Assembly: GCA_002269645.1 (NCBI GenBank)
Contig: NIVC01000045.1
Coordinates: forward strand, 62,001 to 126,000
Reading direction: 5' to 3'
DNA length: 64,000 bases
Source: Macrostomum lignano
Lineage: Eukaryota
Shown: one piece after another, positions 34,781 to 64,000 of the stretch
Layout: each line of letters starts with the position of its first letter
Position numbering within the stretch: position 1 is the first letter of the stretch
The notes under the pieces: generated by a model
Databases searched by the model: none
What the model saw: only the letters and a program-made list of their open reading frames with translations
Told to the model about the DNA's origin: nothing
Translations under genes and position numbers: made by a program

Positions 34781-36547
34781 CCAGATAAATTTGCTGCTTC
34801 AATGCAGACTCCAATTGCCGACCATCTGCTTAGCCTATGCCTGTTATTGCTTGTCTACAGTAATTCAGTAATTCTTGTAGCTTGTAGCTTCTCTTCTAAT
34901 CCCGCAAAACAGAATGCAGTCATACTATTAACAGCCTGCAGATATCCACTTTGTCGTCTACAACTTTCATTAACATCAGCAAACTACAATAATTCACTCA
35001 GCAGAATACAGTTATCCCCTCAATAAACTTGCAATTAATCATTCACAGTTATTATCCACTAAAACTCTGTAGATAGTTATCCCATCGGCAGTTTGCAGCT
35101 ATACACTTATAAGTCTGGAGGAACTACCTCAGCAGTTTTTCGTTTTTCAACTTTGCAATCTTTTGCACAACACAGCTTTTAGCAATACTTTCAGCAGTTT
35201 AGCAACATCGTCTGCATTTTAGCGATTTCTTAGACCTTAGGCAATAACAATTATTGATGGGATAACTGATAGTCGAAGCTAATTATTACTAATTAATAAA
35301 AAATAGTTGCTTTTAATCAAAAAATGTTCGATTAGTCCAGGCACAAGCTAAAAATAAATGAAAATTAATTTAATATATTTTTATCTCCCACGTGCATACT
35401 CTGAAGCTTGTGAATATTTAATTATTTATAGCTCGCAGCATCAGCTCAAGAAGTTAAAGTTTAGTCTATGGCCATAGACGTATTATTATTTTTCGAGCTC
35501 TCACGGCGGGCGGGCACTCCTCACTCCTGTCCTTATCTGTGCTTCTCTCTTCCTCCCGGCCTGTCCTTGGCCTTGTGTGTGTTTTTACGGCCTTGTTTTC
35601 CTTCTCTCTGTCTGGCTGCCTCGAGCCTCCTTGCCTCACGCCACGACTGACGCCAACTTCGCCACTGCTCATCTGCCTACTACGTCTCACTGCCTCTTCT
35701 GTACTCATTGCCATTGATCATCACGTTACGTCGCCATTACATCACTCGTCTGTCGCTTGAACTCACATCCAATTTATCTTAAAAGAAACCATTGTTGCAG
35801 CCGCCAGTGCCCAGAAAGCCATAGTTTGTTATTTGCCAGTGACAACCAACTTACTATTTATATTGATAATAAAAACCGACTACGGCAGTTTCCTGCCCTT
35901 ATTGCCAAGTGCTCCGCTACACCAACCACTTCGCATAAGTTGACTTCAACTTATTTTGGGACTAAAACGGCCCTTTTAAGGGTCACGGCCAACATCAAAT
36001 AACGTGACAAGGTAACAGGAAGCTATGAGACATGGATAGTCGTGAAGTTCTGCGGGAAAAATTGATTGCCGTTATGAAAAACAAAATCCCTAAAAGGTAA
36101 ATTAATTGTACACACCGACGTCAATGTGCTCAAGTTATCAAGTACTTGCACTCTATAGTTTCAACTAAACAGCATCATTAGCCGTTACTTGATTGATGCC
36201 TGAAATTGGGAAATTAGGAAATCGTTTGCGTCTGGTTTGCTACATGAAACGAATCGAATCGCCTCGCCTCAAATACCATTGATTTTTTTTCAATCTCAAT
36301 TTAGCAAAATTGAAAGTGCTAAACTTCTTAACCATACAGAAGGCGCTCTCCCATTCAAATTAAAATAAAATCCTTTCCGCTGACAATTGCATATTGAAAT
36401 AGTTTTAATTGTTGTCTCAGCTTTCTGTCGGATCTGCGTACGAGTATTCTAAGATTAAACAATGAGCGGCAAGTCCGACTGTGTTTTCCTGCGGTGTTAA
36501 ACCTTCTCTTGAGATGGTATATTTTCAATCTAAATCACTGATGGAGT

Positions 36548-37990
36548 TCACGTAAATACAAAGGATGTAAGCTTTTGGATGTAAGGATGTAATACCGGAC
36601 GAACGGTATTCGCCTTTCCGGTAATGTACATGAGTGTAAACTGATAATCCTGTAGATATAGAATCCATTTTTGTAATCGCCGGGACAGTGGTTGTTTGTC
36701 AGCGAAAAGCGATTGCAGTGGCTGGTGATCTGAGTAGATGGTGAACGGCTGGTAAGAGGCATACAAGAAGACATGGAGTTTCTTGATCGCCCAATAGATC
36801 GCATAGGCTTCTCGTTCGATTGCCGGGTATCGTTGTTCAGTGGCCGATTGTGTCTTCGAGATGTAGGCCACAGGCTGTTGGTGTCCTTCGGAATCTGCTT
36901 GGGAGAGTACGGTGCCGATAGCCGGATCCGAGGCGTCGGTGTGGAGGACATACGGCTTGTAAGGGTCCGGGGTGGACTAGTCGGATGTCGGTGGTAAGTA
37001 TATTTTTGAGCACATCGAATGCTGACTACTGTTCCTTGTTCCAGATTATCTTTTACGTCTTGGATGCGTTGCGCAGGGCGTTGAGTAGTGGTGCGACTAT
37101 TGTGGAGTATCCCTTGATGTGCGTTCGATAGAAGTTCGCCATTCCTAGAAAATATTGTAGTTGTATCACTGTCGCTGGGATCGGAAATTTGTTGATTTTC
37201 TCAACCAGGGATGGTGCTGGTCTGATGCTGTCTTCAGAGACTTGAAAACCAAGAACTTCCGGTTTCGCAAAGACACATTTTCGAAGTGAAATTCTAAGTC
37301 CATGTTGCCTCAGTTTGTGTAAAAAGTGTTCGAGTTCAACCATCATGTCGTTGAAATCTCCAGAGATGAGCAGTATGTCATCTAGATATGCGATTAGGTT
37401 CGGTGAGTCCGCAGTTAGTAGCGAGACGAGACGACATATGATGCTGGGGCTTGATTTGAGGCCTTGCGGAAGTCTATTGAATTGCCAAAGAAGTCCGTTT
37501 GGCGCAATGAAGGCTGTATACTTTGAGCTCTGTGGATCTAGTTGAACTTTGTAGAAAGCGTCAGCGAGGTCACAGAGAGAAAACAGTTTAGCGCTTCTCA
37601 GCCGGTGTAGTAGATCAGGTATTTTCGGAGGTCGTATGCTTGGCGTGCTAATGATCTTGTTCAATCTGCGGAAGTCGGCAAGTTGGCGGAGTTGTCGTCG
37701 GCCTTGTTCACCGAGTGTTTTCTTTTCGACCAGTAGACATGGGCTGGAGTATTCGGATTCACTCGGGCTGAGGATGCCTTTCCGGACGAAGTTGCTTATT
37801 AGCTCGTCAAAGCGCTCCTGTAGGCCATGTGCGATTGGAAATGGCCGTGACGTGATTGGGTCGGAATGCTGGTGGACACTAATTTTGGCCGTGTATTGTG
37901 TCGTGCAGCCCATATCGGTTGGCAGGAGGGCCAGTGTGTCATGAAATCGGGATAGAATTTCAACCCCTTGTTTCCGTTGGTCCGGTGATA
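36548..37990 (-). pseudogene. pol: Reverse transcriptase-RNase H (frameshifted)
   Basis: ORF 37053-37913 (SPCLLVEKK, LADFRRLNK, DLADAFYKV, RLPQGLKSSP, YLDD, FLGMANFYR) and ORF 36548-36871 (RH). Confidence 0.9.
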
Positions 37991-38226
37991 AGTGTTGATT
38001 CTTCTTAATCTAGTTGGTCTTTGATCAAGTCTTCGTCGCTTTTTGTCATATCAGGTTTGACATCCAAGGCGTTGATTTCTGTTATGGCTGGCGCTGAGGC
38101 TAGCGTATAGTCTGCTGGGTCTGACAGTGCGCCGAGATGAGTTCTGGCATATAGCGTTACGGGTTGAAGTGTCGGATTCGAAATCTGAAGCAGTATGGAG
38201 CGTCCGGTTTTGTCAGTCTAGCATAA

Positions 38227-38835
38227 TTATGCTGCTAGAAGTAGCTTGTAGCGTTGCATCGTATGGTCCTTTGGTATAAATAGGACTGGCTGGCGGAGTG
38301 CCAGGTGTGGACAGTTCGGCTGACACCCACGTTGTTGTCTGTGCTGGGATGTGGGTGGCTTTCGGAAGTTGGACGTTGACTGTGTTCGTTGGAACAGCCA
38401 TCGTACTGAGCATCGGAAATGTCGTACCATCGATTTGGGCTTGAAGGTCTGGAAGGTCTCTACCCCAAGGATGAGATCATATTCTTTGGACATGTTGTCC
38501 AGAACGAAGGCAGACAGAAATCTTGTGTTCCTTTGAGCCAATCAGTATGCAGAAACTGGCTTGTTTCTTAATGTGGATCAGTGGATCAGTTGTCCGCCTG
38601 CACATTGCACGTGAAGTGAGTGTGGTGTGATCTTGGCGTTCAGTTTCTGTGCAAAAGTCGGTGAGATGCAACTGATTGAGGCGCCGCTGTCGATGAGAGC
38701 CGTGCATTTGTGTCTTGTCGCTGGAGGCATAGTGCACCATAGTGTTATCAACGTGCGCGTGGTGAGATGTTTGAGGACGGTGTTGTATGCGATTGGCCAT
38801 GGAGGAACCGGTGGTTTAGGCGCAGGTATTGGTTT
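38227..38835 (-). pseudogene. pro: Retroviral-type aspartic protease, in frame with env after TGA
   Basis: Continuing the env frame past TGA (38836-38) gives KPIPAPKPPVPPW...CTALIDSGASISCISPTFAQKL. An 8-nt (tgatccac) and a 4-nt (tctg) duplication interrupt the frame, then SAFVLDNMSKEYDLILG follows in the same frame. Confidence 0.8.
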
Positions 38836-40500
38836 TCACACCGTCGTAGGAGCTACGGATGTTGGTTCGGTCTGTTGTGCCCGTCGTGGTGGTGAGGAGT
38901 TTATTAGTACCATTGGTACTTGGTTTGGAGCTCGAGTGGGTGAGGATGCATGGCGCCGTCTGCTCCTTGGGCTATCTGTTGTTCGGAGGACCATCAGACG
39001 GTGTGTACGTCCGTATCGTACCGTGTTCGCGACGCAGAAGCGACCAATATTGCAGATGAAGATTAGTAGTGCGGCATACACGATGACCGCGGAGCTGAAC
39101 AGGAAACGTTCCATGTGGTTGTCGCGGAATCGTTCCCAATTAAAGATAGAGGTGCTCCAGAGATTCTTAAATGCTTGTGTGGCGTCCAGTCTGAAGTTTG
39201 AGGCGTCGGATAGCAGTTCTTGGCGAGTTTTGTTGTTGTTCATCTTGAAGACAGTAACTAGGAAATCTCTTGTTTGCATGAATTGTTCCATCATGTCTGT
39301 GACGGTGACCGGACTTCGCAGAGTGCTGTAGTTGACATCGCCAATGGGTGTGAAAATGCTCTGTCTCAGGTCGTTATAGAGTGATTGTAAAAGGTACGTT
39401 TCGTCCGTGACCTGATGTGAGTCTAGTTCGCGAATGTCACTGAAATTAGTCGTTGCTTTGAAGATAAAGGTGTCTTTGGTAGATAGTATCCATCTTGATA
39501 TTCGCACGGTATTAGTGGTGGTTTCGCGGTTGAGACGATGAGCGTGGTGGTATCCAGATAAGCTAGTACGCTCCTGTTCTGCAGCAGCTAAGAGTGCTGC
39601 AGTGCTGCAGCAGCTAAGAGTGTGCTGAAACGGTGTAACTGCAAATGTTAAAGCTAGTGTTTGGTCGTCGTTGATGAAAAAGTTGGAGTGCTGTAGTCCA
39701 TTCAGCGCACGAAACGGTATGAGTGAACAATCTGATTGTGGTGGTACGCTCCAAGACAGCGTTAGTTGTCGCTCGCCTGCTGCGTGAAGAGTGGCGACGG
39801 CCGGTGGAGTTAGTTGTGTCCACGCCGCTGTCAGAAGCTGATGTGGTAGATTAAAGCGCATCATCTGTTCCACAGTTGTCGGGATGATGCAACCTTTTGT
39901 TGAATAAACACAATGTTTGATTGGAAACGCCAGTGATTCCATCGGATCTGTTGGACTAGCAAAAGCAGCGATGTAAGTAATCAAGGTGGATGCCGTTATC
40001 GTTTGAGTACGGGAGGCAAGGCAGTTCTCCAGCAAAGATGTCTGTATGGCTGACCGGAATAGTTATTGGCCAGAAACTGTTGCTGCGATTTGTAGTTGGC
40101 CATCAGGTGAATTTCTGGACTCGACCCATTGTTGACAAGCGAGTGGCGTTATCGATTTCGATTTCACAGCTATTTGGGCTTCGCGAAAAGTGCGTAAGTG
40201 TGAGCCAAGACGATTGCAGTTGATTGGTATTTCTTCCAGATAACAAATGTTCATCATTATCCGGGTCTTCGCTAGGTTCGAGGTGTAGAGCCGTAGACGC
40301 ACTGGGATGGCTCTTGCTTCTTGTGGGTTGAAGGACTCGCACCGTATTTCGGTAGGGATCTTGAAAATTCGAACTGGGTCGTTGAGTGGGCAGACCATTG
40401 GTGTGTCGACGAATGTCGGGGTGATCGAGTGGTGCCGTTGCGTTACGTGTTTCGACACTTCCAATCAGAGTGGTGATCAGCAAACCAAGGAGTAGTACGC
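38836..40500 (-). pseudogene. env: Envelope-like type I membrane glycoprotein (class III fusogen-like), with one frameshift and one nonsense codon
   Basis: Signal peptide VLLLGLLITTLIGSVET and an NAT sequon (gag frame); frameshift ~40420 into a Cys-rich ectodomain (MVCP..C..ICY..NC..LACQQW..NC..HCVYSTKGC..LSW..DC..LTF..CC); TAA at 40063-65; RLNR; TM FLFSSAVIVYAALLIFICNI; basic tail. Confidence 0.7.
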
Positions 40501-41960
40501 CTGGTTGACCGCGAGTGTTTAGATGAGTCGTCTTGCAGGCCGGTTGTCTCAGAGGACGCTGAATTGTGGGCGCGCAGTCCGGGCATTCGGGAGTCCAGGA
40601 GACGACCTGGATGCCCATGACTTCGGTCTTGGTGCTCTGCTGCCGGAGCTTAAGGGTACGCAGAAGGTTGTACTGCGGTCCAGTCCCAGTGCAGTAGTAT
40701 GGTTCACTAGTTGCTGGAGTAGACACATTGACTTCCGGTTTTGATTCCATGGCCTTGTCGGCACCCGTCGGCTGCGGTTGTTCAGTGCTGGAGGGTGCGC
40801 CTGTCGTCACGACCTGTAGGGCGTTTAGCGAGGCGGCTGGGGCTCGCGGTGACGGCGATCGTGAGTGGCTTCCGTTTGGTCGGTTTGGGCCATAGGAATT
40901 TCTGTTGGAGAAGCGGCCCTGTCGTCTGTCTGAGTGTTGATATTTGATTGCGCGGCATTCTCTGGTATTGTGAGATGTTGTGCGATGGAATTTGCAGTAC
41001 TTTTTCCCAATACCACAAGTGGAAGGTGATTGTGAGCGCTGGCGTTGAGGGTTTGGGTCAAATCTCCTTTGACGACAGTCTCTGGCGATGTGGCCGACCT
41101 TGTTGCAGTTGTAACATTCGCGACTGGAAGGTCGTCTAGGTGGTTGAGGCATAGGCGTCTGGACAGCGGCAAGTGTGGGTTTTGTAGTCTGGTTCCCGGA
41201 TTCTAGGGCGGCTAGCCGTTTTGTGAGCTCGGCCATTTCGGTGGAGGCTGTGGCTTGAGTATTGTCTGCAATTTTTTCTGCTCGGATGGCCTGACTCAGT
41301 AATTCTTGTTCCGTTTGGATTGGGATGCGCATCAGTTCTCGGCGAATGTAGGGTAGCGTCCCGTTTAGAATGTTGGCAATCAGTGTCGTTGTGAAGTCAT
41401 TGCCCCGTTGGCAGATTACAGCCTGGTTGGGGGGTTCGTTAAGACCGTCGGGAATTGGTTCCGGTGCGATGGCGGGATAGACCGTGGGTAGTTTTTTGCA
41501 GACGTCGCTGAAGTATTGAGTGAACGATTCGCCGGGCTGCTGTCTTCGACTTGCAATTTGTTGCAGAAGTGAGGTGGATCCGTTTGTCAGGTCTCGAAAG
41601 CGGGCACGCATGTGCTCAAGCATGCCCGTGTAGGTACCTTGTTGCGCGGGCGTTAAATTGGAGAATTCGATTTTGAGCAAATCGTTTAAGAATCGCGGGA
41701 AAATTCGAAGCTTAGTATAATCATCCAAATTGAAAGTGCGGGTGGCCAGATCAAACTCCATGACAAACGTCGCGAAGCCGTGCAGTTTATCGATATCCTT
41801 CAGGGCTTCGCGGATTTCGTTGATCGTCGATGATGATTACTGAAGGCGTTGGTCTTTGGGCTGGCTGCGCGGGACCAAGCTGTTGTAGTAGTTGCTGTTG
41901 CTGCAGCTGTTGTTGCTGTGTAAGGTTTTGGATGAGCTCTTGCAGCTGGTTGGCGTCCAT
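40480..41960 (-). pseudogene. gag: gag (frameshift near 41820)
   Basis: MDANQLQELIQNLTQQQQ... then INEIREALKDIDKLHG leading into ORF 40103-41761, with CYNCNKVGHIARDC and CKFHRTTSHNTREC zinc knuckles. Confidence 0.8.
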
Positions 41961-42864
41961 GATGATTTCCGGTACAAGCAGATAGGCTGGTGGTGAATAA
42001 CCAGAGGGCCAAGCAGTTGGGGAAGTAGTTACGTCGGGAGTAGAGCCGGAAAGTCATCGGGTACTCGAGGTTGTTCTGTCAAGTGCTTGGTCTGTGTCAG
42101 CGGCTGGCGCTGGGTTTCGTTGCAACTTTCGCGATTTAGTTGTAGGGGATTGTGATGCTGCTGGTCGACCAGAGCGTAAGAGCATGCAGGATCCTGCTAT
42201 CAAAAGAAGAGATTCTGGTTTGTAATAAGAGTGTAGTGAAGATGAGAAATAATTGAATTAAGCAATATTTTGAGACTACACGAGCATTATAGAATATGGG
42301 TCGTGTTTAACTGGACTATCCCTTTGGTCATCATTTTGTAATATCGGTATGACTTGTAATGAGAATTTTGATATGTATGTACACGAGTGACTACTGTTTA
42401 AGTAGTATCAGACGATAATCAAACAGAATATGTGTGTATCAGCGTATTGATCAAAATTGTAGGCTGTAGAGCCTGTAGACTTCTTTGTAAACGAATACGA
42501 GCATCTATTGCAAAATAGGCTATACAACAGGGCCACAGACTACGGTATGGGCTTGCTAGGAAACGGTACGACGGGTGCCACAGGTGCGTTTGTGGGCTTA
42601 TTGCGAGACGATATAGCGGGTGCCACAGGTGCGTTTGTGAGCTTATTACGTGAGTTCGGTACACGAACTGTGATGCATAATGAGTTGCCAGCCAGGAATG
42701 AATGTCGCGACAGGGCGACCGTCGCAGCTTGTGCGACCTTTTAACAGGAATCGCCGATTTGCGATCTCCGACCAGCTCTTCGGGCAAAGCTTGTGTGGCC
42801 GGGTTAACGACTGAGTGCCACTACCAAATTAGTGGCACGTATTGGGGTCGTAATTCGAATTACC

Positions 42865-44446
42865 GAATTACGACCCCAAGAAACCCGTGGCTCTGGAGTG
42901 TGATGCTTCCCAAAAAGGACTGGGCGGAGTTCTGATTCAATACAACAGACCGGTTTTTTTCATCAGCAAGAGGTTATCAGAAGTCGAGAAAGAGTATTCT
43001 CAGATCGAAAGGGAGGCCCTTGCAATTGTCTGGTCAACTCAGAGGTGTCAGCGATTTTTAGCGGGACGTCATTTCAAGCTGATCACGGATCACAGACCAT
43101 TAACCTACATCTTTGGGCCGAACGAGGGCCTGCCTACGCGCGTATCAGCATGCCTTCAAAGATGGGCGATATCGCTAATGGCTAATGGTCGCTAATGGCA
43201 TATGGGTATACGCTCGTACAATCGGGAGCATCCAACTACCCTCAACGATCATATCCATTCAAGGGGTTAGAGACCAATCACAGGATTGCCCAGAGATCGT
43301 TCTGTTAAAAGAAGCCATCTGGACGAGCAACTTTAACGACCCGAGAATCCGCCCCTACAAGGCAGTCGCGGACGAACTGACGATCGAGTTGGACGTGGTA
43401 CTCCGAGAGATGCGAGTCATTCTTCCAAAGACGTTGCGGTTATCACATCACACAGCACACATCTAGGCATTGACCGAACCAAGTCACAGTTTTGGTGGCC
43501 CGGCTTGGATCGAGACGTAAAACGACTCATCGAAAATTGCAAGACGTGCAAAATGGTCAAGGCTGACAATCGAAACTACCTAAAATCTTGGCCGACAGCA
43601 ATGGACGCTGGAGAGCGCGTACATGCGGATTTTGCGGGTCCAATAGATGGCCAATATTTGTTGGTGCTGGTGGACGCCATGTCGACCTACCCTGAGGTGC
43701 ATCTGACCGCCAACATGGAGTCATCTACAGTCATCTCTAGGCTATGGAGAACTTTTTCGCAGTGGGGTGTGCCAAGGACACTTGTCACCGACAACGGCCC
43801 AAGCTTCGTCTCAGCTGAAACAACACAGTGGCTGAAAGCAATCGGGTGCAGCCATCTGACCACACCTCCATATCACCCTCAGAGCAACGGAGTCGCTGAG
43901 AGATTTGTTCGCACAGTGAAAGAATCTGTGTCAGCGTTGGGTCTGAGTCAACACAACATTGACAAGTTCCTACTGTTCTACCGATCATCCAAAGGAAATA
44001 ATGGTCGCACACCGTCGGAGAAGTTTCTAGGTCGAAACATCCGGACTCCTTTGATGACAGAGTTTTCTGGAGATGACGATGTGGTGTACAGGACACAAGG
44101 AGCTACGTCACTAGCCAGAATCGTCCTGCCTACACGCCGCAACACGGCAATCATCAAGCTTGAAAACGGCTTGTACAAGAAGGCTCACAGAGACCAGATA
44201 CGGAGCTTCAAGGGCAGCGATGACAAGGACATTGGCCCGGAACAAGCTACCACTGGTGCTGCTGGTGAGGTCGATCACCCTCCAGCTATGCGCCCTGGAG
44301 AAGAGGAGCAGGAGCAGCAGCAGCAGCAACCTAGAAGAAGTGAAAGACTGATGAACAGACCGACTGTGAATTATAAGGAGTTAACTGTAATTTTGAAGCA
44401 AGGAGGTGCTGCGGTCTGGCTTCTGCCCGAGCAGATTGAACTTTAA
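42865..44446 (+). mobile_element. pol: Gypsy pol fragment (RNase H + integrase, K02A2.6-like), 5'-truncated and frameshifted
   Basis: NYDPKKPVALECDAS, EREALAIVWS, TDHRPL; integrase HADFAGP, VDAMS, LVTDNGPSF, PPYHPQSNGVAERFVRTVK; tail RRSERL..RP..Y; purine tract aagcaaggagg followed by TG at ~44407. Confidence 0.88.
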
Positions 44447-44759: not shown

Positions 44760-44917
44760 ACGGCTGCAAGAGCCGAGAGTGCACGGCACACAACTTGCAT
44801 AAATATAACGCAATACAAAAGACCGACTTGTAACAATTAGGAAGAGGGGAGGGACCCTAGAATTGGATGGCCAGATAGGCTGAAGGGGGAGCGCGGGTAA
44901 CAAAGCGCGGGGGGTCC

Positions 44918-45112
44918 AAGTGGGAAGTTTGATGCTCGAATATCGACCGATGTGGAGAGGATAGGGAGGCTGGGAAGGAATGTCCCGTGCCGACCTGTGT
45001 ACTTCAGCGTGGGAAGTGGGAAGTGGGAAGCTTGATGCACGAATATCGACCGATGTGGAGAGGATTGGGAGGCTGGGAAGGAATGTCCCGTGCCGACCTG
45101 TGTACTTCAGCG
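44918..45112. repeat. ~92-bp direct duplication in a purine-rich, LTR-like segment
   Basis: aagtgggaag...gtacttcagcg at 44918-45009 and 45021-45112 with few mismatches. Confidence 0.8.
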
Positions 45113-45548
45113 GGAGGTACAAGTCAGTATCCGACGAAGACAGACCGGACTGTACTGTTAAAGTAGACGTCTGGGGAAGGATCGATCGAAGGGGGGTTGT
45201 CTAAAGGGCGAGAGCGGCCGGGGACGAGCAGGGGCTGTACTATCCAGACATACCAGAGCTTCTAAATGTCAGCCGTAGCCCCCAAAAGGACGAGGCGGCT
45301 GATGCGTGCCCTCTGCAGCGCGTATCTCTCCGCCATTGCCATGTAGTGTACACAAAAGCCCAATACCGTCGGCCTAATGCACATTAAGCAGTCAAATTTA
45401 GTTCCTTGTTAATCAACTTGCCTAAAATCGATCACCATGTAATCAAACAGGGATAAAAGCATCAATTCGTTCAGTCGATCGCGGTCTATCAAGCACAGAA
45501 GAGCGCGATATACAGATAATCTCGGGATTGAAAATTTGAGTTGTTAAA

Positions 45549-48953: not shown

Positions 48954-49796
48954 ATGACTGAAAATGAAGGCAGTGCAGAGAGCCCTGCAGTGGCGGTGAC
49001 TCAGCCCCAAGCTAGTTTTGTCAACATGTTTTTGCGGCCGCCTTAATACCAGCATGGACAAGACTTTGAACTTTGGCTGGCGCGATTCAACAATTTCGCA
49101 TCATCTCTTCCTGTGGATCAGCGCAAGAATGCTCTGCTGTCATTCCTCGACGACAAATCATATCAAGCGGCCAGCAATTTGGATGCTGCCCTGTCCTACG
49201 ACGACTTTGAGAAGGCTCTGAAAAATCGATTTCGGCCATCAACATCCTCTGCTGAGCTGCAGGCGCAGTTCTTCAATCTGACTCAAAAGGACGGTCAGTC
49301 GGTTGCAGACTATTCCGATGCCCTGATCGTTGCGGCAAAACGCGCTTTCCCGAGTCTGATGGAGACGAAAGCAAGTGCCGAGCAGGAGACGTCGGTGACA
49401 GCGAAGGACGAGCTTCTCAAAGGTCGGTTTCTATCCGGATTGAGGGACCCAGCTGTGCGAATGCAGACGCAGATGCAGCCAAAGGCGACATTCGCTGATA
49501 CAGTTGAAACAGCGCGATTCGTGGAATCGATACAGTCGCAAGGAGGCACTGCTACGGCTCTAGCTGCTGAGGTTCTGGAAGCCTTTGCAGTCGGAATTCA
49601 ACGGTCCCTGAAGGAGCTGTCCAACAAGCTCAGCCGCTGGGAGTCAAAGGACCAGGATCATCGTCAGAGCGGCGACAGACGCAGAGTTGTGACATGCTGG
49701 AAGTGCGGTAAGCCGGGCCATGTTCAAAGATTTTGCACTCAGAAGTCGGGAAACTTCGATGGAGCGGCGACCGCCGGGGTGCCGTTCCGCAAGTGA
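48954..49796 (+). pseudogene. gag: gag with one in-frame TAA
   Basis: ATG 48954 is in frame with ORF 49113-49796; TAA at 49044-46; CWKCGKPGHVQRFC knuckle. Confidence 0.88.
49748..49788 (+). promoter_or_regulatory. -1 programmed ribosomal frameshift signal
   Basis: Slippery heptamer G GGA AAC (49748-54) in gag frame, 6-nt spacer, hairpin ggagcggc/gccgttcc. A -1 slip enters the pol frame (KLRWSG). Confidence 0.8.
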
Positions 49797-52700
49797 GAAT
49801 CCCGGCGCAACCAATCGTAGAGGTGTCCTGCTCAGCCACTGGTGCCAACATGCTGGTAAACTGTCGCATCCTGCCAATGTGTATCCCTGCCAGCTGTCTA
49901 GTTGACACTGGGTGTTCCCAGTCTTTGATGTCAAGTTCCCTGTTTCGCAAGCTGAATGACAGGCTCCTGCCTTTGACGACTCCGGTGCAGTTGAAGCTAG
50001 CAGACGGTAACTATTTGGCTGCCTGTGGTTGGCAGGAAGTGCAGCTAAGTTTCGGTGTGGCAACGGTTCGACAAAGAGTTTTAGTTGTCGACAATCTGGC
50101 CAAGGATTTTTTGCTGGGTGCAGATTTCCTGGCAAACTGTGGCTGCGTCATCGACTGCAATCGCCAAACGCTCACTGTGTGCGGTCAGCAAGTAAAAATG
50201 GAGTCATCGGCAGCAAGTAGCTGTGTATTCGCCGTTGAGGTAGCAGACAGGACAACCGTGCCCGCTGGTAACGAAATCGTTTTCCCAGCGAGATTGGCAA
50301 GTGAGTCAGATGCAGCTGTTGATGGTGAGTGCGGCATCTTTGAGCCTGACAATTCGAAGGACATCTCCACGGTCATGTGTGGAGCGCGCAGCCTCTCGGT
50401 GTTGCGAGGAGGACTCATCGCCGTTCACTATGTCAATACGGACACCAAGCCGCATACATTTTACCCCGGAACAAGACTGGGGACTTTTGAGCCGATGTCA
50501 GATGGTGCCGATGCAGAGTTGTCAATGCAAGTTGAGACAGTGAAAGGTCAAATCGCCGAGTATGTACCAAATGTGCACATTGATGAGAAAAATCTTACAG
50601 CCAATCAAGTTCAGTGTGTCAAAGATCTTCTGCATCAGTACCAGGATGTGTTCTCGAAAAGTCCAAACGACCTGGGCTGCACTTCACTCCTTGACCACAA
50701 AATTGACACCGGGTCGGCGAAACCTATCAGAGTGCCCCCTCGTCGATTGTCGCCGCCGAACCAGCGAGCTGTGTCAGAGATGGTCGAGCAGATGGTGAGA
50801 GACGACATCGTAGAGCCTTCGAATTCTCCGTGGTCGAGCCCGGTCATTCTGGTGAAGAAGAAGGACGGCAGTTTGCGCTTCGTGAACGACTTCAGACTGC
50901 TCAACTCCGTGACCGTCAAAGACAGTCATCCACTGCCTCACACCAGCGATCTGATCGATGCTCTCGCAGGATCCACAATGTTCTCAACGCTCGACTTCAC
51001 TAGCGGGTACACCCAGGTGATGCTGGACTCAGAGAGTCGCGCAAAAACAGCATTTCCTGCGCCACAAGGATTATTCCAGTACAAGAGACTACCGCAAGGT
51101 GTGTGCAATGGTCCTGCCACGTTTTCAAGGCTGATGGAACTCGTTCTGAAGGGCCTCTGATGGGAAGTGTGCCTGTCATTTCTTGACGACGTTGTCATCT
51201 TTTCGAAAGGATTCGAGGAGCATCTGCGGCGTCTTGAGCTTGTGTTGCAGAAATTCAGAACCGCTAACCTGAAGTTGAAGCCGACCAAGTGCCACTTGTG
51301 CTATCAGGAGATCTCATTTCTTGGCTTTCGAATCTCAAAAGATGGCGTGACCACTGACCCGGACAAGGCGAAAGCAGTGCAAGAGTGGCCAACGCCCGAA
51401 GATCGTTCAGAAGTGCGTCAATTCCTGGGGTTATGTGGCTACTATCGTCATTTCGTTAAAAACTACAGTGAGATTGCTGAACCGCTGTACAAGCTAACGC
51501 AAAAGGACGTGACCTTCAGCTGGACTCTCGAATGCTCAGCAGCATTTAATCGACTAAAGCAGTGCCTTACTTCCAGCCCAGTCCTCATCATGCCGACATT
51601 CGCAGAAGACGCTGAGTTCGTGCTAGATACCGATGCCTCTGGCGTGGCCATCTCCGGAGTTCTTCAAGAGCGCCGTGGTGGCAGGACGCAGGTGGTGGCG
51701 TACGGCAGTCGCATTCTGTCCAAAGCAGAGAGAAATTACTGCACAACGAGGCGTGAGCTGCTGGCAATTGTGCACTTCGTCGGTCACTATCGCAGCTACT
51801 TGTTAGGAAAAAGATTCACACTACGTACTGATCACGCCTCGCTGATCCATCTTCTGCGCTTTCGAGATCCCGATGGTCAGCTGGCACGGTGGCTGGATAA
51901 GCTAAGCGAATTCGACTACCAGACGGAGTATCGCAAGGGCGAGAAACATGGAAATGCAGACGCACTTAGTCGGCGACCGTGTCGAAAAGGACCTTGCCTG
52001 TGCAGTGGCTCTGCGCTCGCTGTCGAGTTCAATGACGACAGCGCGATTCGACGAGCACAGGCAGAGGATCGGTGCATGCAGAAGCTGGCGAACTGCTTGC
52101 GAGATGGTCAACCACCGGATAAGGCAGAGAGGGACGGCTGGAGCAATCGGCAGCGGCAACTGCTGTCCGAGTTTAAGCGGCTGACACTGGTGAACGGACT
52201 GCTGTGCCGCCGATGGGAATCCGAAGATGGCAGCGCCTTTTGTCAGCAGCTGCTGGTGCCAGAGAGTCTACAGCGCGATGTTTTTGTCGAAGCTCATGCT
52301 GGAACGAGCGGCAGCCACTGCGGACCGCAGAAGACCATTGAAAAGATCAGGGCGCGACTCTACTGGCCTGGAATGACAGCAGATGTGACTGACTGGTGTG
52401 CTGCGTGCCTCGAATGCGCGACGCTGAAAGATTCTGGCCAGCACAGGCGGGCACCTCTACAGAGCATGGCGGTCGGCAGCGTTGGCCAGCGACTGGAAAT
52501 GGACTTCATGGTGGGCCTGCCGAGGACCGATCGTGGAAATTCAGTCATCCTGGTAGTCATCGACACCTTCAGCAAGTGGACTGAGGCCTTTCCACTGCCG
52601 TCTCAAGACGCTGAGACCACAGCCCGGACGTTTGTCAACGAGTGGGTGGCTCGCTTTGGAGTCCCGCAGTAGGTGCACACCGACCAGGGTCGGAACTGGG

Positions 52701-53402
52701 AGTCACAGCTGTTTCAAGAGACGATGCGGCTGCTGAAAATCGACAAGACTCGGACGACAGGCTACCACCCTGAAGGAGACGGCGGTTGCGAACGGATGAA
52801 CCGGACACTGGTACAGCTGCTGCGTGCATGGGTGAACGATAATCAGCGAGACTGGGATCTTCATCTGCAGATTGCACTGATGGGCTACCGCACTTCAGTC
52901 CACAAGTCGACTGGTCAGACACCTTCGGCGATGCATTTCGGCCGGGAACTGCGACTACCACTGGACTTGGCATACGGAGGTCTGGCGCCGGATAGGCAAC
53001 GTCCTTGTGAATGGGTGGCCGAGCTGCGGAGCCGGCTGCAGACATCGCACGAGAGGGCGCGACAAAACTTGGAGGCAGCGCAACTGCACCAGAAGGCAGC
53101 GTACGACAGGAGGTGCCATGGCGAGGCATTCAGCGAGGACGATCTGGTCTGGCTGCACAATCCGGCGCTGAAGCGAGGCGAGAGCCGAAAATTTCATCGA
53201 TGGTGGACTGGGCCATGGCGCGTTAAAAAGCAGATCTCAGACGTCACCTACCGCATTCAGCACGAGGCCAATGCACGACGGCGAAGGGTGGTGCATTTCA
53301 ATCGCCTGAAGCCATGCAACACGGCCAGTCCAGCTGCAGCACCTCAATTGCAACCAGCGGCGCAACTGCACAATCCTGACGAGGACGACCTGAGATTTGA
53401 CG

Positions 53403-53640
53403 GCGTCCCAGCCGGCGCCCCAGCCGGCGTCCCAGCCGGCGCCCCAGCCGGCGCCCCAGCCGGCGCCCCAGCCGGCGCCCCAGCCGGCGCCCCAGTCGGC
53501 GCCCCGGTCGGCGCCCCAGCCGGCGCCCTAGCCGGCGCCCCAGCCGGCGCCCCAGTCGGCGCCCCAGCCGGCGCCCCAGTCGGCGCCCCAGCCGGCGCCC
53601 CAGTCGGCGCCCCGGTCGGCGCCCCAGCCGGCGCCCCTGC
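53403..53640 (+). repeat. In-frame 12-bp repeat (~20 copies) encoding (P-A/V-G-A/V)n in the integrase tail
   Basis: Unit CCAGCCGGCGCC with CCAGTC/GGCGTC variants. Confidence 0.95.
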
Positions 53641-53920
53641 TGATGTTCCAGAGCATCCTGAGCAGCCTGTATTGCGCCGAAGTGAGAGGGCCCGTGCCCC
53701 GCCAGAATTTTTTGGTGAAGTGTATACTCATTGAATGCAGATTTTCTTAGAAATTTTTTTTTGAAACATTGACATTGCTTAAGTTTTTTTTTTTAATTTC
53801 CTCTTTTATTTCCCTCAAATACTTATTCGTTCAAATATTCGATCACAATTCGTCGAACTCATACTCGTTACTTTTTTTTAACACAACGAAAAATGCAGAA
53901 AGTGAGTGGAACACTTTTTT

Positions 53921-59700: not shown

Positions 59701-60319
59701 TCAAGGAGAATTTTTCTAAAAAATATCGCCAGAAATACACAAAGATCCAAAGGATATAATAGTGTAGCAGGCTATCGTACGCTAAGTGAATAAAGCAGTA
59801 TGAGTAGCGAGTATGTACATGTATGAAATATTGCCATTATCCAGTAAATCCACTAATTTATCGCAGGCGATTTTGTAGCTTCATAAAAACGCCACGCGTG
59901 ACTTCATGGTCTTAAGATTAAGAAACTTAAAGAACGTTTTATTCACCTTAATCTAAATTTCGGTTCGTTCCCAGCCGTTTAACACTGTCATTTGTGATAG
60001 GAAATCTGCTGGAAACAGCGTTGATATTACATAATTGTAGATAAGAAAGCTCTTTATCTAATCTAAAATAAACTGAACTCAAGACAAGCGTAATACTATT
60101 TTTTGTTTTTGTTTCGTAGTTCACAGCATAACTGGGTGGGCCTAGGTGAATTAACGCATTAAATTGAGTTGGCCAATAATACATCTAAAATTCCCGTTTT
60201 CTATTAAAAGTATTTTCCATGGAATAGCCGGAAAAGCAACCATATTTAACAAAATAATCACAGCAATCGTAATGCCACAGTTTAAGAGCAACGTTCAATC
60301 CGTCTCTTTTCAGCTCGAC

Positions 60320-63300
60320 ATGACCACTCAAAAGTACTCACAATTTCATGCGATGGCGGCCACAAGCAAAAGTGACGATAAGTGCTGGATTAAAGATCCA
60401 AAGAGTTTCTGGGACGATAAAGGCATCGATTGGAATCCAAGCAAAAGGCTACTTTTCCGAGCAAAACAATACGACTTTAAACGCGTGCTTGAAACTCTCA
60501 ACGAATTTGGTTCCAATCTGAAACTACTACTGGATGACAATCTCAGAACAGCTGCTCACTATGCAGCCATGCATCGTGACGGTGAAGGTGCACTAGCTGC
60601 TATAGTTGAAAGTTATCCTCTCTGCCTGACAAGTCCTGACGTTGACAAAATAACTCCGCTACATTTGTCAGCTCGCTACCACTCAGCAAAGTCTTGGGAA
60701 TCGCTATTCGACCGCACCAAGTCTGCAGTCAGTCTGTCTCGACTGAGAGACTCAAACGGTGATACTTGCGCTCATTGGGCTGCTCGAAACTCAAAGGACA
60801 GCAGTATTGTACTTACAGTGAAAAAGAAGGCTTCCAGCGTCTGTTGGAAGTGGAGAAACAATAGAGGTGAAACAGTGCTGCACCATTTGATGCAATATTG
60901 CCCAGACACGAACACTGTCGCAGAAATCTTAAAAGAAATCGGTCCACGTAGCGATCTGCTACTTGAGACGGATATTGACGGGAATACAACGGCTCACTTT
61001 GCTGCTAGAAGTAAATTTGATTGCGTTAACAACGTAAATTGGTTTAATGATAATAGTTGGTTAATTTCTCGCAACGACAAACAGGAAACAGTCCTACAAT
61101 TAGCCCTTAAAAATAGCAGCAAGGAAACAGCGAAAATTTTTATCAAACAGGCTTCTTCCCTGTATATCCGTTGGTACAAGCTAAAAGACGATCAAGGAAA
61201 CACATGTTTACATGCTCTGGCTCGCGCAGGACGAGATGACGTGCTACTGGAGGCTGTAAAACACGCGATACAGCAGAGTGAACAATCTGCGAACAGAGAA
61301 CCAGTTCAAACGTCAGGGCAAACAAGGAGATGGCGGCTTAATCAAACCGGGAGCTCTAGCACCCCTGGAACTGCCAGTGCACAACCTTCAAAGACGCCGC
61401 AGGCTAGCGAAAATGCCGATCCAAGCTGCCTGCTGAGTGAAAACAAACGCAAATCCACCGTTCTTCACTACGCCGTCGAAAATTGCAGCTTTGAGACTGC
61501 TAAGGAGCTGCTCAGTAAAATTAAAAATTTTCAAAATTTTCTGCAGGCAGACAAATCCGGCAACACAGTTTTCCACATTGCCGCGAAAAGAAAAGATAAA
61601 GCTGAAATTCTAAACTTCCTGATTAAACAACTACTCAAAGTAAGAAAGGTAGATCAGGTCCTTAATATTTTCAGTGCAAGAAACAACAAAAATCAATCAG
61701 TTCTTCATTTGGCAATCGATACAATGGACACTGCTGATTTTTCTGACGCTGAGGCTCAAGATGCTCCCTATTTGGAGAAGCTGAGTATGAACCAACTCAT
61801 AGAAAAGATGCGAAAAGAAGTGCTCCAGCGCACAGACAGAGCAGGAAACACGCTGTTGCATTCGCTTATGCAGAGCCAATTCACCTATGATGGATTCGAA
61901 CAGGACATTTTGGATCGATTCAAGTTGCTGGTTGATCAAGGAGTGAAAGTGACTGCTCACAACAACCTCAATCTAAACTGCCTACACGCGACAAAACTCG
62001 ATGCTTCAGTTCTGTGCAAATTGCTGTCGAAAGAAAAAGCAGCAACGCTCTTTAAGGACCTGTTAGTTAATTCAAAAACACATGCTCACCTCATTCACAC
62101 TTTCTCAGGTCAGTATGATCTCAGTCCTGAAGACAAAGAGATAAGCAGCCTGCCAGACGGACAGACAATGTTGGATGTGATTGAAAAGATATCGAATACG
62201 CGTAAAGACGTTCTTATTAAGCAGAGAGTTAATCCGCAATCTTGCGACAACGCAGAGCATGGAGAGACATGCTTGCACTTTGCTTGCGCATACGGACATC
62301 AGGAAAATATTTTCTTTCTATTGTGGAATGGTCTGAGCCTTTGGTCTGAGTCCCATTCAGGACGGACTTGCGTTGACTACGCCTTCGAAAACGGAAACTT
62401 TGATGATCTTGTCGAAGCAGCTTGGTGCTACAATAAAGCATATGATGAGGAACAGGAACGGAACTCCGTTACGAACGGTTCAGACGATACAAAATCTCAA
62501 AACACTCGCAAGGCGATAAAAATGACAGACATTTGGCGTTTGCTAGATCCGCCTCAAAGAGCGCTTCAGCTTCCTTACAGACAAGCTGCGAGAATGACTC
62601 TGGTGTCAATAACCAACGACTATGGAACTACAAAGTTAGCAGCTCCGAGCTCCAACACAAAAAAGCAAAAAACCGACAAGATGGTTTTGATCAGAGCGCT
62701 CGAAATGGACTCCAGAAAGATATTTCGCGCGGCTCTGAGTCTAAAAATGATCACGCGAGAAACGGAGACACTATTCATTCCAAGCTTTATTGACACACTT
62801 AAGCGAGAGGAAGGCATCCGGAAATCTTTTTCGCGACAGAACATGTTCAAGAATATGCCTCACGTTGATGCCACCTCGGAATTGGCACTGATAGACTTGG
62901 CCGCGTTCTTCTACCGCGACGAGATCCTGCCCGATCTGATTTTGACTCGACAGTTCGAGCTGATTCCGTGCTGCCTCAGCTTGCTCATCCAGCTTGATCC
63001 CGAAATCATCAAGATGCGAGCCAAGGCAAAAGGCAAGCATGAGCAACTGCTGCAACTGCAGAAGAAAGTCACAAACATTGCAATGAACGCACTGAATGAG
63101 CTGTTTATTAACGCCAACAATATCGAAAGCGAGCTACTCTTCAAGTATATTGACGGAAAAATATTGCATCCTGATGGTATTGGTGAAAATGGAGTCGTTA
63201 GCAAAGATAAAAGTTTCAAAGGACCCAAATTTCCATATAGGAGCGGAACTGGAGACAATGCTCGTATCAAATACGGAAGCGTGCTAGAGCTGGTAAAAGC

Positions 63301-64000
63301 CACCAACAGCCCAGATCTGTTTGCCACTGACTGCATCTACTCGTGGACGAAAAAGAAATGGAGAAAGCCTATTTCCCAGTGCTCAAAAGGACACGGCAGC
63401 TCTCAAAATTGCTGCCCTAGCTTTTTCAGCTGCAGGCCAAGATTTTCAAGACCTGATTCTCCACGAGCCAAGTTCTGTACCCACACTGCCGCATTCGTTG
63501 TGTTCCTTGGATTCTTCGGCTGGTACATTCTGAACTTTCAATTCAGCTTTCCACAGCCACAGTTCGATGCAATTTTGGTAGCATATCTGCTTTCATTCAG
63601 TTTGCAAGAAGCAACTGAAATCTGGAGACAACGCAAAGCAAGAGAAAATTGCAAGATTGGCCCGCATGTACGGTCTGTTCCCGCATACCTGGTTGACTGG
63701 CTTAATATTGTGGATATTTTGGCAGTTTTATTCCTTCTAGCTGGTCTGATTGCACGGTGGTCCTATTTTTTCGGTGGTTTTAAGATGCATGACGCCTATT
63801 CCTGCCAGATGATATTGAGCACTTCCTTTGCACTTTTCTGTTTGCGATCAGTATCGTTTCTTAGTTACTTCGAGGGCGTCGGACCAATGATCAACATGCT
63901 CTGGAGTTTAATTTTCTACGACTTGATACCGTTCCTGACAATTTTGTTCGTCATATTTTGGTGCTTTGGTGTCTTCTTCACGTGCCTGCTGTTTTCTTTT
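60320..64000 (+). CDS. Ankyrin-repeat TRP-family cation channel, 3'-partial; single uninterrupted ORF/exon of >1200 codons
   Basis: Manual translation from ATG 60320 (acceptor at 60313) gave no stop up to the window end. Many ANK motifs (TAAHYAA, TPLHLSA, TVLHYAV, TCLHFAC); TRP pre-S1/S1 SPRAKFCTHTAAFVVFL; S3 YLVDWLNIVD; S4-S5 linker GVGPMINM; S5 DLIPFL. Confidence 0.9.
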   Translation, partial: MTTQKYSQFHAMAATSKSDDKCWIKDPKSFWDDKGIDWNPSKRLLFRAKQYDFKRVLETLNEFGSNLKLLLDDNLRTAAHYAAMHRDGEGALAAIVESYPLCLTSPDVDKITPLHLSARYHSAKSWESLFDRTKSAVSLSRLRDSNGDTCAHWAARNSKDSSIVLTVKKKASSVCWKWRNNRGETVLHHLMQYCPDTNTVAEILKEIGPRSDLLLETDIDGNTTAHFAARSKFDCVNNVNWFNDNSWLISRNDKQETVLQLALKNSSKETAKIFIKQASSLYIRWYKLKDDQGNTCLHALARAGRDDVLLEAVKHAIQQSEQSANREPVQTSGQTRRWRLNQTGSSSTPGTASAQPSKTPQASENADPSCLLSENKRKSTVLHYAVENCSFETAKELLSKIKNFQNFLQADKSGNTVFHIAAKRKDKAEILNFLIKQLLKVRKVDQVLNIFSARNNKNQSVLHLAIDTMDTADFSDAEAQDAPYLEKLSMNQLIEKMRKEVLQRTDRAGNTLLHSLMQSQFTYDGFEQDILDRFKLLVDQGVKVTAHNNLNLNCLHATKLDASVLCKLLSKEKAATLFKDLLVNSKTHAHLIHTFSGQYDLSPEDKEISSLPDGQTMLDVIEKISNTRKDVLIKQRVNPQSCDNAEHGETCLHFACAYGHQENIFFLLWNGLSLWSESHSGRTCVDYAFENGNFDDLVEAAWCYNKAYDEEQERNSVTNGSDDTKSQNTRKAIKMTDIWRLLDPPQRALQLPYRQAARMTLVSITNDYGTTKLAAPSSNTKKQKTDKMVLIRALEMDSRKIFRAALSLKMITRETETLFIPSFIDTLKREEGIRKSFSRQNMFKNMPHVDATSELALIDLAAFFYRDEILPDLILTRQFELIPCCLSLLIQLDPEIIKMRAKAKGKHEQLLQLQKKVTNIAMNALNELFINANNIESELLFKYIDGKILHPDGIGENGVVSKDKSFKGPKFPYRSGTGDNARIKYGSVLELVKATNSPDLFATDCIYSWTKKKWRKPISQCSKGHGSSQNCCPSFFSCRPRFSRPDSPRAKFCTHTAAFVVFLGFFGWYILNFQFSFPQPQFDAILVAYLLSFSLQEATEIWRQRKARENCKIGPHVRSVPAYLVDWLNIVDILAVLFLLAGLIARWSYFFGGFKMHDAYSCQMILSTSFALFCLRSVSFLSYFEGVGPMINMLWSLIFYDLIPFLTILFVIFWCFGVFFTCLLFSF

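Follow-up and report, generated by a model that had tools for sequence, protein, structure and literature searches.

The stretch of Macrostomum lignano DNA analysed here, 64,000 nucleotides (nt) of contig NIVC01000045.1 and hereafter the window, carries on its minus strand the remnant of a Ty3/Gypsy retroelement in which an envelope segment (Env) lies inside the polyprotein, between Gag and the protease. We are highly confident that this remnant is a dead copy of one family (family A) of an ancient Env-carrying Ty3/Gypsy clade, whose intact members translate Gag, Env and Pol from a single open reading frame (ORF). A sequence-only reading of the window had proposed that the ancestor made such a polyprotein, and naturally intact sister ORFs with an internal signal and a transmembrane (TM) helix bear this out. 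The layout is real and mostly known: elements of the order GAG-ENV-POL are described from three phyla (excerpts of Chary and Hayashi, eLife 2026, PMC13524379, to which all our statements on that paper refer), contrary to the earlier remark that the architecture was unknown for long terminal repeat (LTR) elements. The window contributes a further family of a kind already described, represented by a dead copy.

Intact sister elements encode Gag, Env and Pol in one frame

The single ORF is seen directly in family B, which is 68% identical to family A in nucleotides (80-86% in reverse transcriptase (RT) amino acids). Family B comprises eight copies, four of them fully open in a single frame of 2859-2866 amino acids (aa). 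Its protein (P0001) runs from a capsid (CA)-like region through two Cys-His knuckles, a linker, a signal, Env, a TM helix and a tail into Pol, where Pfam places the protease (PR, 1633), RT (1976-2131), RNase H (RH, 2222-2329) and integrase (IN, 2440-2613). An identical protein is on deposit under Macrostomum lignano, which makes the host a flatworm. The element is about 13.4 kb long, with 577-nt LTRs (TG...GA), a TGG-type primer site and a short purine-rich tract; a leader of about 2 kb separates the primer site from the ORF (L057), and the 3' untranslated region (UTR) measures about 1.6-1.7 kb in families A and B. Paired LTRs are separated by 0-4 substitutions over about 575 columns, and all seven copies in which both flanks could be tested show a 4-bp target duplication. 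Two copies, C270 and C4280, have a common flank and may be one site. The integrase and the LTR sequence, nearly all of it, that the window copy lacks are present in other copies. Primer sites are TGGCTCCCCGAC in family B (L057 5258), TGGTTCCCTGAC in family A (L031 near 1182) and TGGTGATCTCGC in families E and F (L094 441), those of families A and B presumably resembling the ends of tRNA-Glu and tRNA-Asp.

Contigs of four public sequencing runs, some of which may be the source of the assembly, run across the ORF of family B without an indel, a joint or an additional stop. Because these contigs cover it unbroken, the ORF is not an assembly artefact. Among the sequencing runs that contain the element, none is listed as RNA and 14 were guessed to be RNA.

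The same organization extends well beyond family B. With the C-terminal part of Env as a protein query, the source genome yielded 128 matches, 16 of which lie in open frames of at least 2458 aa. The continuous gag-env-pro-pol ORFs that the sequence-only reading had suggested looking for in sister copies span 2458-2866 aa and, where inspected, have the order CA-nucleocapsid (NC)-signal-Env-TM-PR-RT-RH-IN. All seven full ORFs inspected (one from family B, three from E, two from F and one from D) have the domain order CA-signal-Env-TM-PR-RT-RH-IN, three more family B copies have the same CA-to-IN order, and the broken copies of families C, G and H show it as well. The RT of the full-ORF families other than B is only 32-39% identical to that of family B. 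Pol follows the PR-RT-RH-IN order of Ty3/Gypsy elements (Metaviridae), the window copy lacking IN, and the best match of the RT among solved structures is Ty3 RT (E 2e-60; the next at 3e-43, retroviral enzymes at 9e-36 or weaker).

Could Env be a later arrival, a viral gene or nested element inserted into an ordinary gag-pol copy? Breaks do lie on both sides of the window Env (a frame break near 40420 and a TGA at 38838), but both are missing from most sister copies. Env occupies the same in-frame place in at least eight families whose RTs are 32-86% identical to that of family B, and all seven family A copies retain the segment. The same family groups (A/B/C, D/G and E/F) are recovered in the trees of Env and of RT, and the top RT matches in the source genome are these same Env-carrying families. 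Thirteen of the 18 rows of the RT tree form one group (support 96/94) apart from five other Gypsy RTs of the genome. Three RT rows at first taken for Env-less clade members were rejected as such, being 5'-truncated copies of family H, which has Env. Distant database proteins (P0003, P0004 and part of P0006) likewise join Gag, signal and Env in one chain. On the strength of the common in-frame place, the shared Env and RT groups and these database relatives, Env is an old, inherited part of the ORF, and we regard a secondary insertion as refuted.

P0003, a Gag-signal-Env protein of 1009 aa, is filed under a bacterial metagenome bin. Its bacterial label is likely due to mis-binning, the protein probably coming from a similar eukaryotic element in a different host. 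No locus turned up in metagenome scans with P0003 or with a piece of family B Env.

Family A and the decayed copy in the window

A DNA search of the source genome returned 22 places. Seven copies, 92-99% identical in nucleotides, make up family A. One of them, C1884, has a natural open frame of 1411 aa that starts in the linker, crosses signal, Env and TM and reaches into the protease. The family A LTR is about 574 nt long (TG...CA) and is accompanied by the primer site; the leader between primer site and ORF measures about 2.9 kb (L031). A 555-nt direct repeat flanks C1884 (99.8% identical; L027 3170-3724 and L028 4816-5369); it was considered as the family A LTR and rejected, as it lies outside the LTR and is absent from other copies. 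Three loci, C4060, C2285 and C3805 (L029, L031 and L034), are family A derivatives without about 1 kb of gag (capsid and knuckles) that retain signal and Env; RT and RH are missing too from C4060 and C2285, so that the protease adjoins the integrase there. These gag-deleted derivatives are possibly non-autonomous forms.

The window copy follows the order gag, internal signal-like core, Env, TM helix, tail, protease, RT and RNase H, as first described and as confirmed by stop-to-stop frames, read-through translations with X at stops, Pfam and hydropathy. Its parts are as follows.

44835..45305, minus strand: 5' leader remnants of family A, 89-90% identical to the leader of copy C2285, separated by an unrelated Gypsy fragment
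42186..42836, minus strand: 3' part of the 5' leader, 93% identical to copy C1884 up to 42836
41837..42185, minus strand: polyprotein N-terminus, MLLRSG, then MDANQ at 41960
40499..41836, minus strand: Gag, with a capsid-like region, two Cys-His knuckles and a low-complexity linker with LNALQVV; 44% identical to family B aa 167-550
41069..41119, minus strand: CCHC zinc knuckle (PF00098, E 2.8e-7)
40454..40498, minus strand: hydrophobic stretch predicted as the core of the internal signal peptide (Kyte-Doolittle 2.48, the highest in its ORF)
39606..40420, minus strand: N-terminal part of the glycoprotein B (gB)-type Env ectodomain (profile positions 5-283)
39585..39605, no strand: junction of a 1.18-kb deletion, a 21-nt filler with a short duplication
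39103..39584, minus strand: C-terminal part of the Env ectodomain, with a frame break near 39475
39046..39102, minus strand: predicted transmembrane helix (Kyte-Doolittle 2.36, best of its ORF)
38836..39045, minus strand: cytoplasmic tail, ending in the decay stop TGA at 38838-38836
38476..38835, minus strand: aspartic protease with indels, DSG at 38691 (PF13650, E 9.7e-6)
37056..38009, minus strand: reverse transcriptase (PF00078, E 7e-23), 80% identical to family B RT
36602..36976, minus strand: RNase H (PF17917, E 1.5e-35)
36395..36574, minus strand: last 180 nt of the 3' LTR, 96-97% identical to the LTR ends of C1884 and C2285

The copy is more decayed than first described. It had been given a start at 41960 (MDANQ), but the ORF probably begins upstream at 42185, where it reads MLLRSG; the family B N-terminus is MKLRSG. 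The Gag N-terminus is interrupted by a stop (42056-42054) and a frame break near 41836. A protease-site-like AASLNALQVV lies between the zinc knuckle and the signal-like core. Env contains the frame break near 40420 and a TAA at 40065-40063 that is absent from the first description, and the 1.18-kb deletion (junction 39606/39584) takes out profile positions 284-425 of 578, spanning the furin-site region, a Thr-rich insert and the central helix region. About 390 Env residues are lost. The Cys-rich ectodomain of about 550 aa after a single frameshift, as initially reported, is thus Cys-rich but only about 440 aa long, the larger figure counting TM and tail, and more than one break interrupts it; the out-of-frame part of the 408-aa ORF is about 40 residues. 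As the deletion took the furin linker and the central helix region, the window Env could not work. Indels are also found in the protease, RT and RNase H. The apparent stops at 38580 and 38544 in the protease were discarded as uninformative, since the stretch that contains them, between indels, is out of frame. The integrase, the 3' UTR and most of the 3' LTR were removed by a 3.4-kb deletion (junction 36602/36574), which left RNase H next to the LTR end, and no 5' LTR was found in the 64-kb window.

The TGA between tail and protease, through which the frame had been said to read, might be a stop with programmed read-through that governs the ratio of Env to Pol. It lies in frame at the Env/Pol border and is common to copies C114 and C1272; these two, however, are duplicates of the window locus, with common flanks and deletions, while the other four of the six covered family A copies have a sense codon at this position. 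No intact family has a stop at the Env/Pol border. We regard a programmed stop as refuted. The Env TAA position is a stop in one of six covered family A copies. Both stops are decay.

The leader of the window copy is split by the remnant of an unrelated Gypsy element (42854-44446, plus strand; RNase H and integrase), which lies head to head with gag and is also present in the duplicates C114 and C1272.

Env resembles gB-type class III fusogens

Env belongs, by profile and modelled fold, to the class III fusogens of the gB type. A 14-row Env profile (A2) has its best match in Epstein-Barr virus (EBV) gB (E 2e-15), followed by further herpesvirus gB proteins; the alignment to EBV gB brings the furin site, the central helix and the downstream cysteines into register. 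PF24664 is matched in eight of the 14 Env rows, below the curated cut-off where shown. Foldseek searches with an AlphaFold2 model of the family E ectodomain (pLDDT 67, pTM 0.50) led to herpesvirus gB among PDB entries (E 3e-19) and, in BFVD, to nyamivirus and rhabdo-like glycoproteins (E 2e-24); a model from a single sequence (pLDDT 36) was discarded. Pfam assigns no family to the window Env pieces or to family B Env, and word-based protein searches returned the family's own record or nothing, and two matches with the profile. The first match of an Atlas search, at 0.89, was a Monjiviricetes fusion cluster with low recognition, and is taken as a lead only.

Within the window, a profile of distant-family Env sequences, built without rows from families A, B and C, matches three of 1285 six-frame segments (E 1e-30, 5e-21 and 8e-5), all in the window Env, which speaks against a chance resemblance. 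A Thr-rich, mucin-like insert of about 200-290 aa occupies the furin linker in families A, B and C only (L039, L105 and L028). It is bounded by basic sites and varies in length between family A copies.

Proposed topology, processing and packaging of the polyprotein

Several features recur in all seven families compared: a hydrophobic signal-like core before Env, a net charge of +2 to +5 before versus -2 to +1 after this core, a furin-type site within the ectodomain and, past the TM, basic residues. Sequons account for 46 of 200 Asn inside the ectodomain versus 49 of 530 outside (p 3e-6, a value that the relatedness of the families overstates). These data fit the cytosol-lumen-cytosol topology first suggested for the window element, in which Gag would lie in the cytosol, Env in the lumen and Pol in the cytosol. 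In family B, a VNSI/YNTV/VNTI/VNTL-like motif follows NC, precedes both PR and RT and appears again between RH and IN, which suits candidate sites for the element protease.

The following sequence of events is proposed. Intact members would translate one ORF of about 2450-2870 aa, beginning with Gag (CA, NC and linker) made in the cytosol. The internal signal sequence would then start translocation into the endoplasmic reticulum and be cut by signal peptidase, and the predicted class III, gB-type fusogen would fold in the lumen, become glycosylated and be cut at its furin-type site. The TM helix would stop transfer and leave tail, PR, RT, RH and IN in the cytosol, where the element protease may release the cytosolic domains at sites like (V/A/Y)N(S/T/A)(I/L/V). 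The products may assemble into particles and spread from cell to cell.

In most LTR elements Gag is produced in excess over Pol, and Pol is packaged in the form of Gag-Pol. It could be supposed on these grounds that most Pol does not come from the single ORF, and that splicing, frameshifting or early polyadenylation gives a Gag-Pol fusion or an excess of Gag, the more so as AATAAA occurs near the signal in two of the seven families. We consider this unlikely. In the segment between NC and the signal, no in-frame -1 slippery heptamer occurs in any of the seven families, AATAAA is not conserved, and no conserved poly(A) signal follows Gag in these families. The family B contigs of the four runs contain no Env-skipping joint either, a weak point since RNA is only guessed among the runs and contigs drop rare forms.

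Signal cleavage would part Gag from Pol and leave Pol on the Env tail. We offer a tentative packaging scheme on this basis, in which we place less than even confidence: signal peptidase would split Gag from the rest, so that no Gag-Pol fusion forms, and PR-RT-RH-IN would be packaged as the tail of an Env trimer, through Env and not through Gag; replication would then depend on membrane budding with Env. The signal anchor might keep Gag on the membrane until the element protease acts, with Gag, Env and Pol made in a fixed 1:1:1 ratio, and, within the same scheme, the furin-flanked mucin-like insert might shield the gB-type fusogen in families A, B and C. No published statement on Pol packaging through Env was found in a literature search that did not extend to Sacco et al. 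2022.

Several observations weigh against the overall picture of one inherited Gag-Env-Pol ORF with a gB-type Env. None of the seven family A copies is intact, and the full-length ORF is known only from sister families. The RT tree contained no named reference elements, and the joining of the family groups differs between the RT and Env trees. Families A, B, C, E and F have a clear protease-site motif; families D, G and H do not. The Foldseek TM-scores are low (0.16-0.41) and, together with the pTM of 0.50, leave the domain arrangement of the model unsure.

Relation to known elements and glycoproteins

Errantiviruses of Nematoda, Bryozoa and Platyhelminthes combine an HSV/gB-type Env with the order GAG-ENV-POL (PMC13524379). 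They share with the present elements a Ty3/Gypsy Pol, a gB-type Env between signal and TM, the gene order and a flatworm host, so that the present clade falls under GAG-ENV-POL errantiviruses as that paper defines them operationally. According to the same paper, GAG-ENV-POL elements are not monophyletic, and Sacco et al. 2022 (J Gen Virol, doi 10.1099/jgv.0.001739) are credited with the flipped ENV/POL order in nematodes. Its table holds nine flatworm rows, one for Macrostomum; GAG, ENV and POL are handled as three ORFs, and 'polyprotein', 'single ORF' and 'fused' do not occur in the main text. One member of the present clade is probably already catalogued there as Platyhelminthes_Rhabditophora_Mlig_errantivirus_2, which has an 863-nt LTR and the same primer 12-mer as family E (864-nt LTR, TGGTGATCTCGC), the two element lengths differing by about 1 kb. 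The primer 12-mers of families A and B (LTRs about 575 nt) are absent from all seven supplement files, and the window's family, compared by LTR length and primer site only, looks uncatalogued. Within the literature search, 'gag-env-pol' appeared only in PMC13524379, and the main-text passages of a study of Macrostomum LTR families (PMC12801592) mention neither Env nor polyproteins.

Herpesvirus gB and Nyamiviridae G are matched by profile and predicted fold and have a furin site in the same linker, which is Ser/Thr/Pro-rich in EBV gB too. Identity to the present Env is 9-15%, however, and here the glycoprotein, with a single TM, is embedded in a polyprotein and preceded by an internal signal. 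In families A, B and C the linker is further extended by the Thr-rich insert, about 200-290 aa long.

The structural polyproteins of flaviviruses and alphaviruses pass from capsid through an internal signal to a lumenal glycoprotein, with cytosolic enzymes behind the TM in the flavivirus-like order, and carry class II fusogens. The likeness to them drawn in the sequence-only reading is limited to topology, the fusogen here being class III and gB-type; it is best treated as an analogy, with no homology expected.

The nematode endogenous retroviruses (NERVs) of Sacco et al. 2022 reportedly have a continuous gag-env-pro-pol ORF, with an Env like Nyamiviridae glycoproteins, which would agree with the intact ORFs and the nyamivirus fold match described above; the single ORF is therefore not counted as new here. 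Their hosts are nematodes, in contrast to the flatworm host of the present elements.

Atlas virus and the nematode Belpaoviridae offer another parallel, a single polyprotein of 2828 residues that includes Env without a stop codon (excerpts of 10.1101/2021.11.23.469668). They differ in their Gag-Pol-Env order, C-terminal class II phlebovirus-like Env, Bel/Pao Pol and the joining of Pol to Gag. In the present elements, Env is internal and class III, and the RT motif is YLDD, not of the YVDN type, which sets them apart from Belpaoviridae.

Other features of the window

A second, ordinary Gypsy pol (PR, RT, RH and IN) with few stops lies at 49712-53731 on the plus strand. A 9.2-kb (CTAT)n array fills 5840-15073, and other minisatellites are scattered across the window. 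Other coding regions, all on the plus strand, comprise a myosin-tail exon (850-1656), an ankyrin-repeat ORF followed by an ORF with a Mab-21 C-terminal domain (15650-18605), and a second long ankyrin-repeat ORF of more than 1280 aa (60155-64000).

Implications

The gene order is already in print, and the headline claim is not new. What is added is direct evidence, from at least eight related families in a laboratory-tractable flatworm, for Gag, Env and Pol in one frame, several of these families having young multi-copy insertions. This makes it a testable question how enzymes are packaged and Gag:Pol ratios are set when a membrane-crossing glycoprotein separates Gag from Pol. As compact fusogens of the gB type with no known partner proteins, the Env segments may also help to trace how class III fusion proteins evolved.

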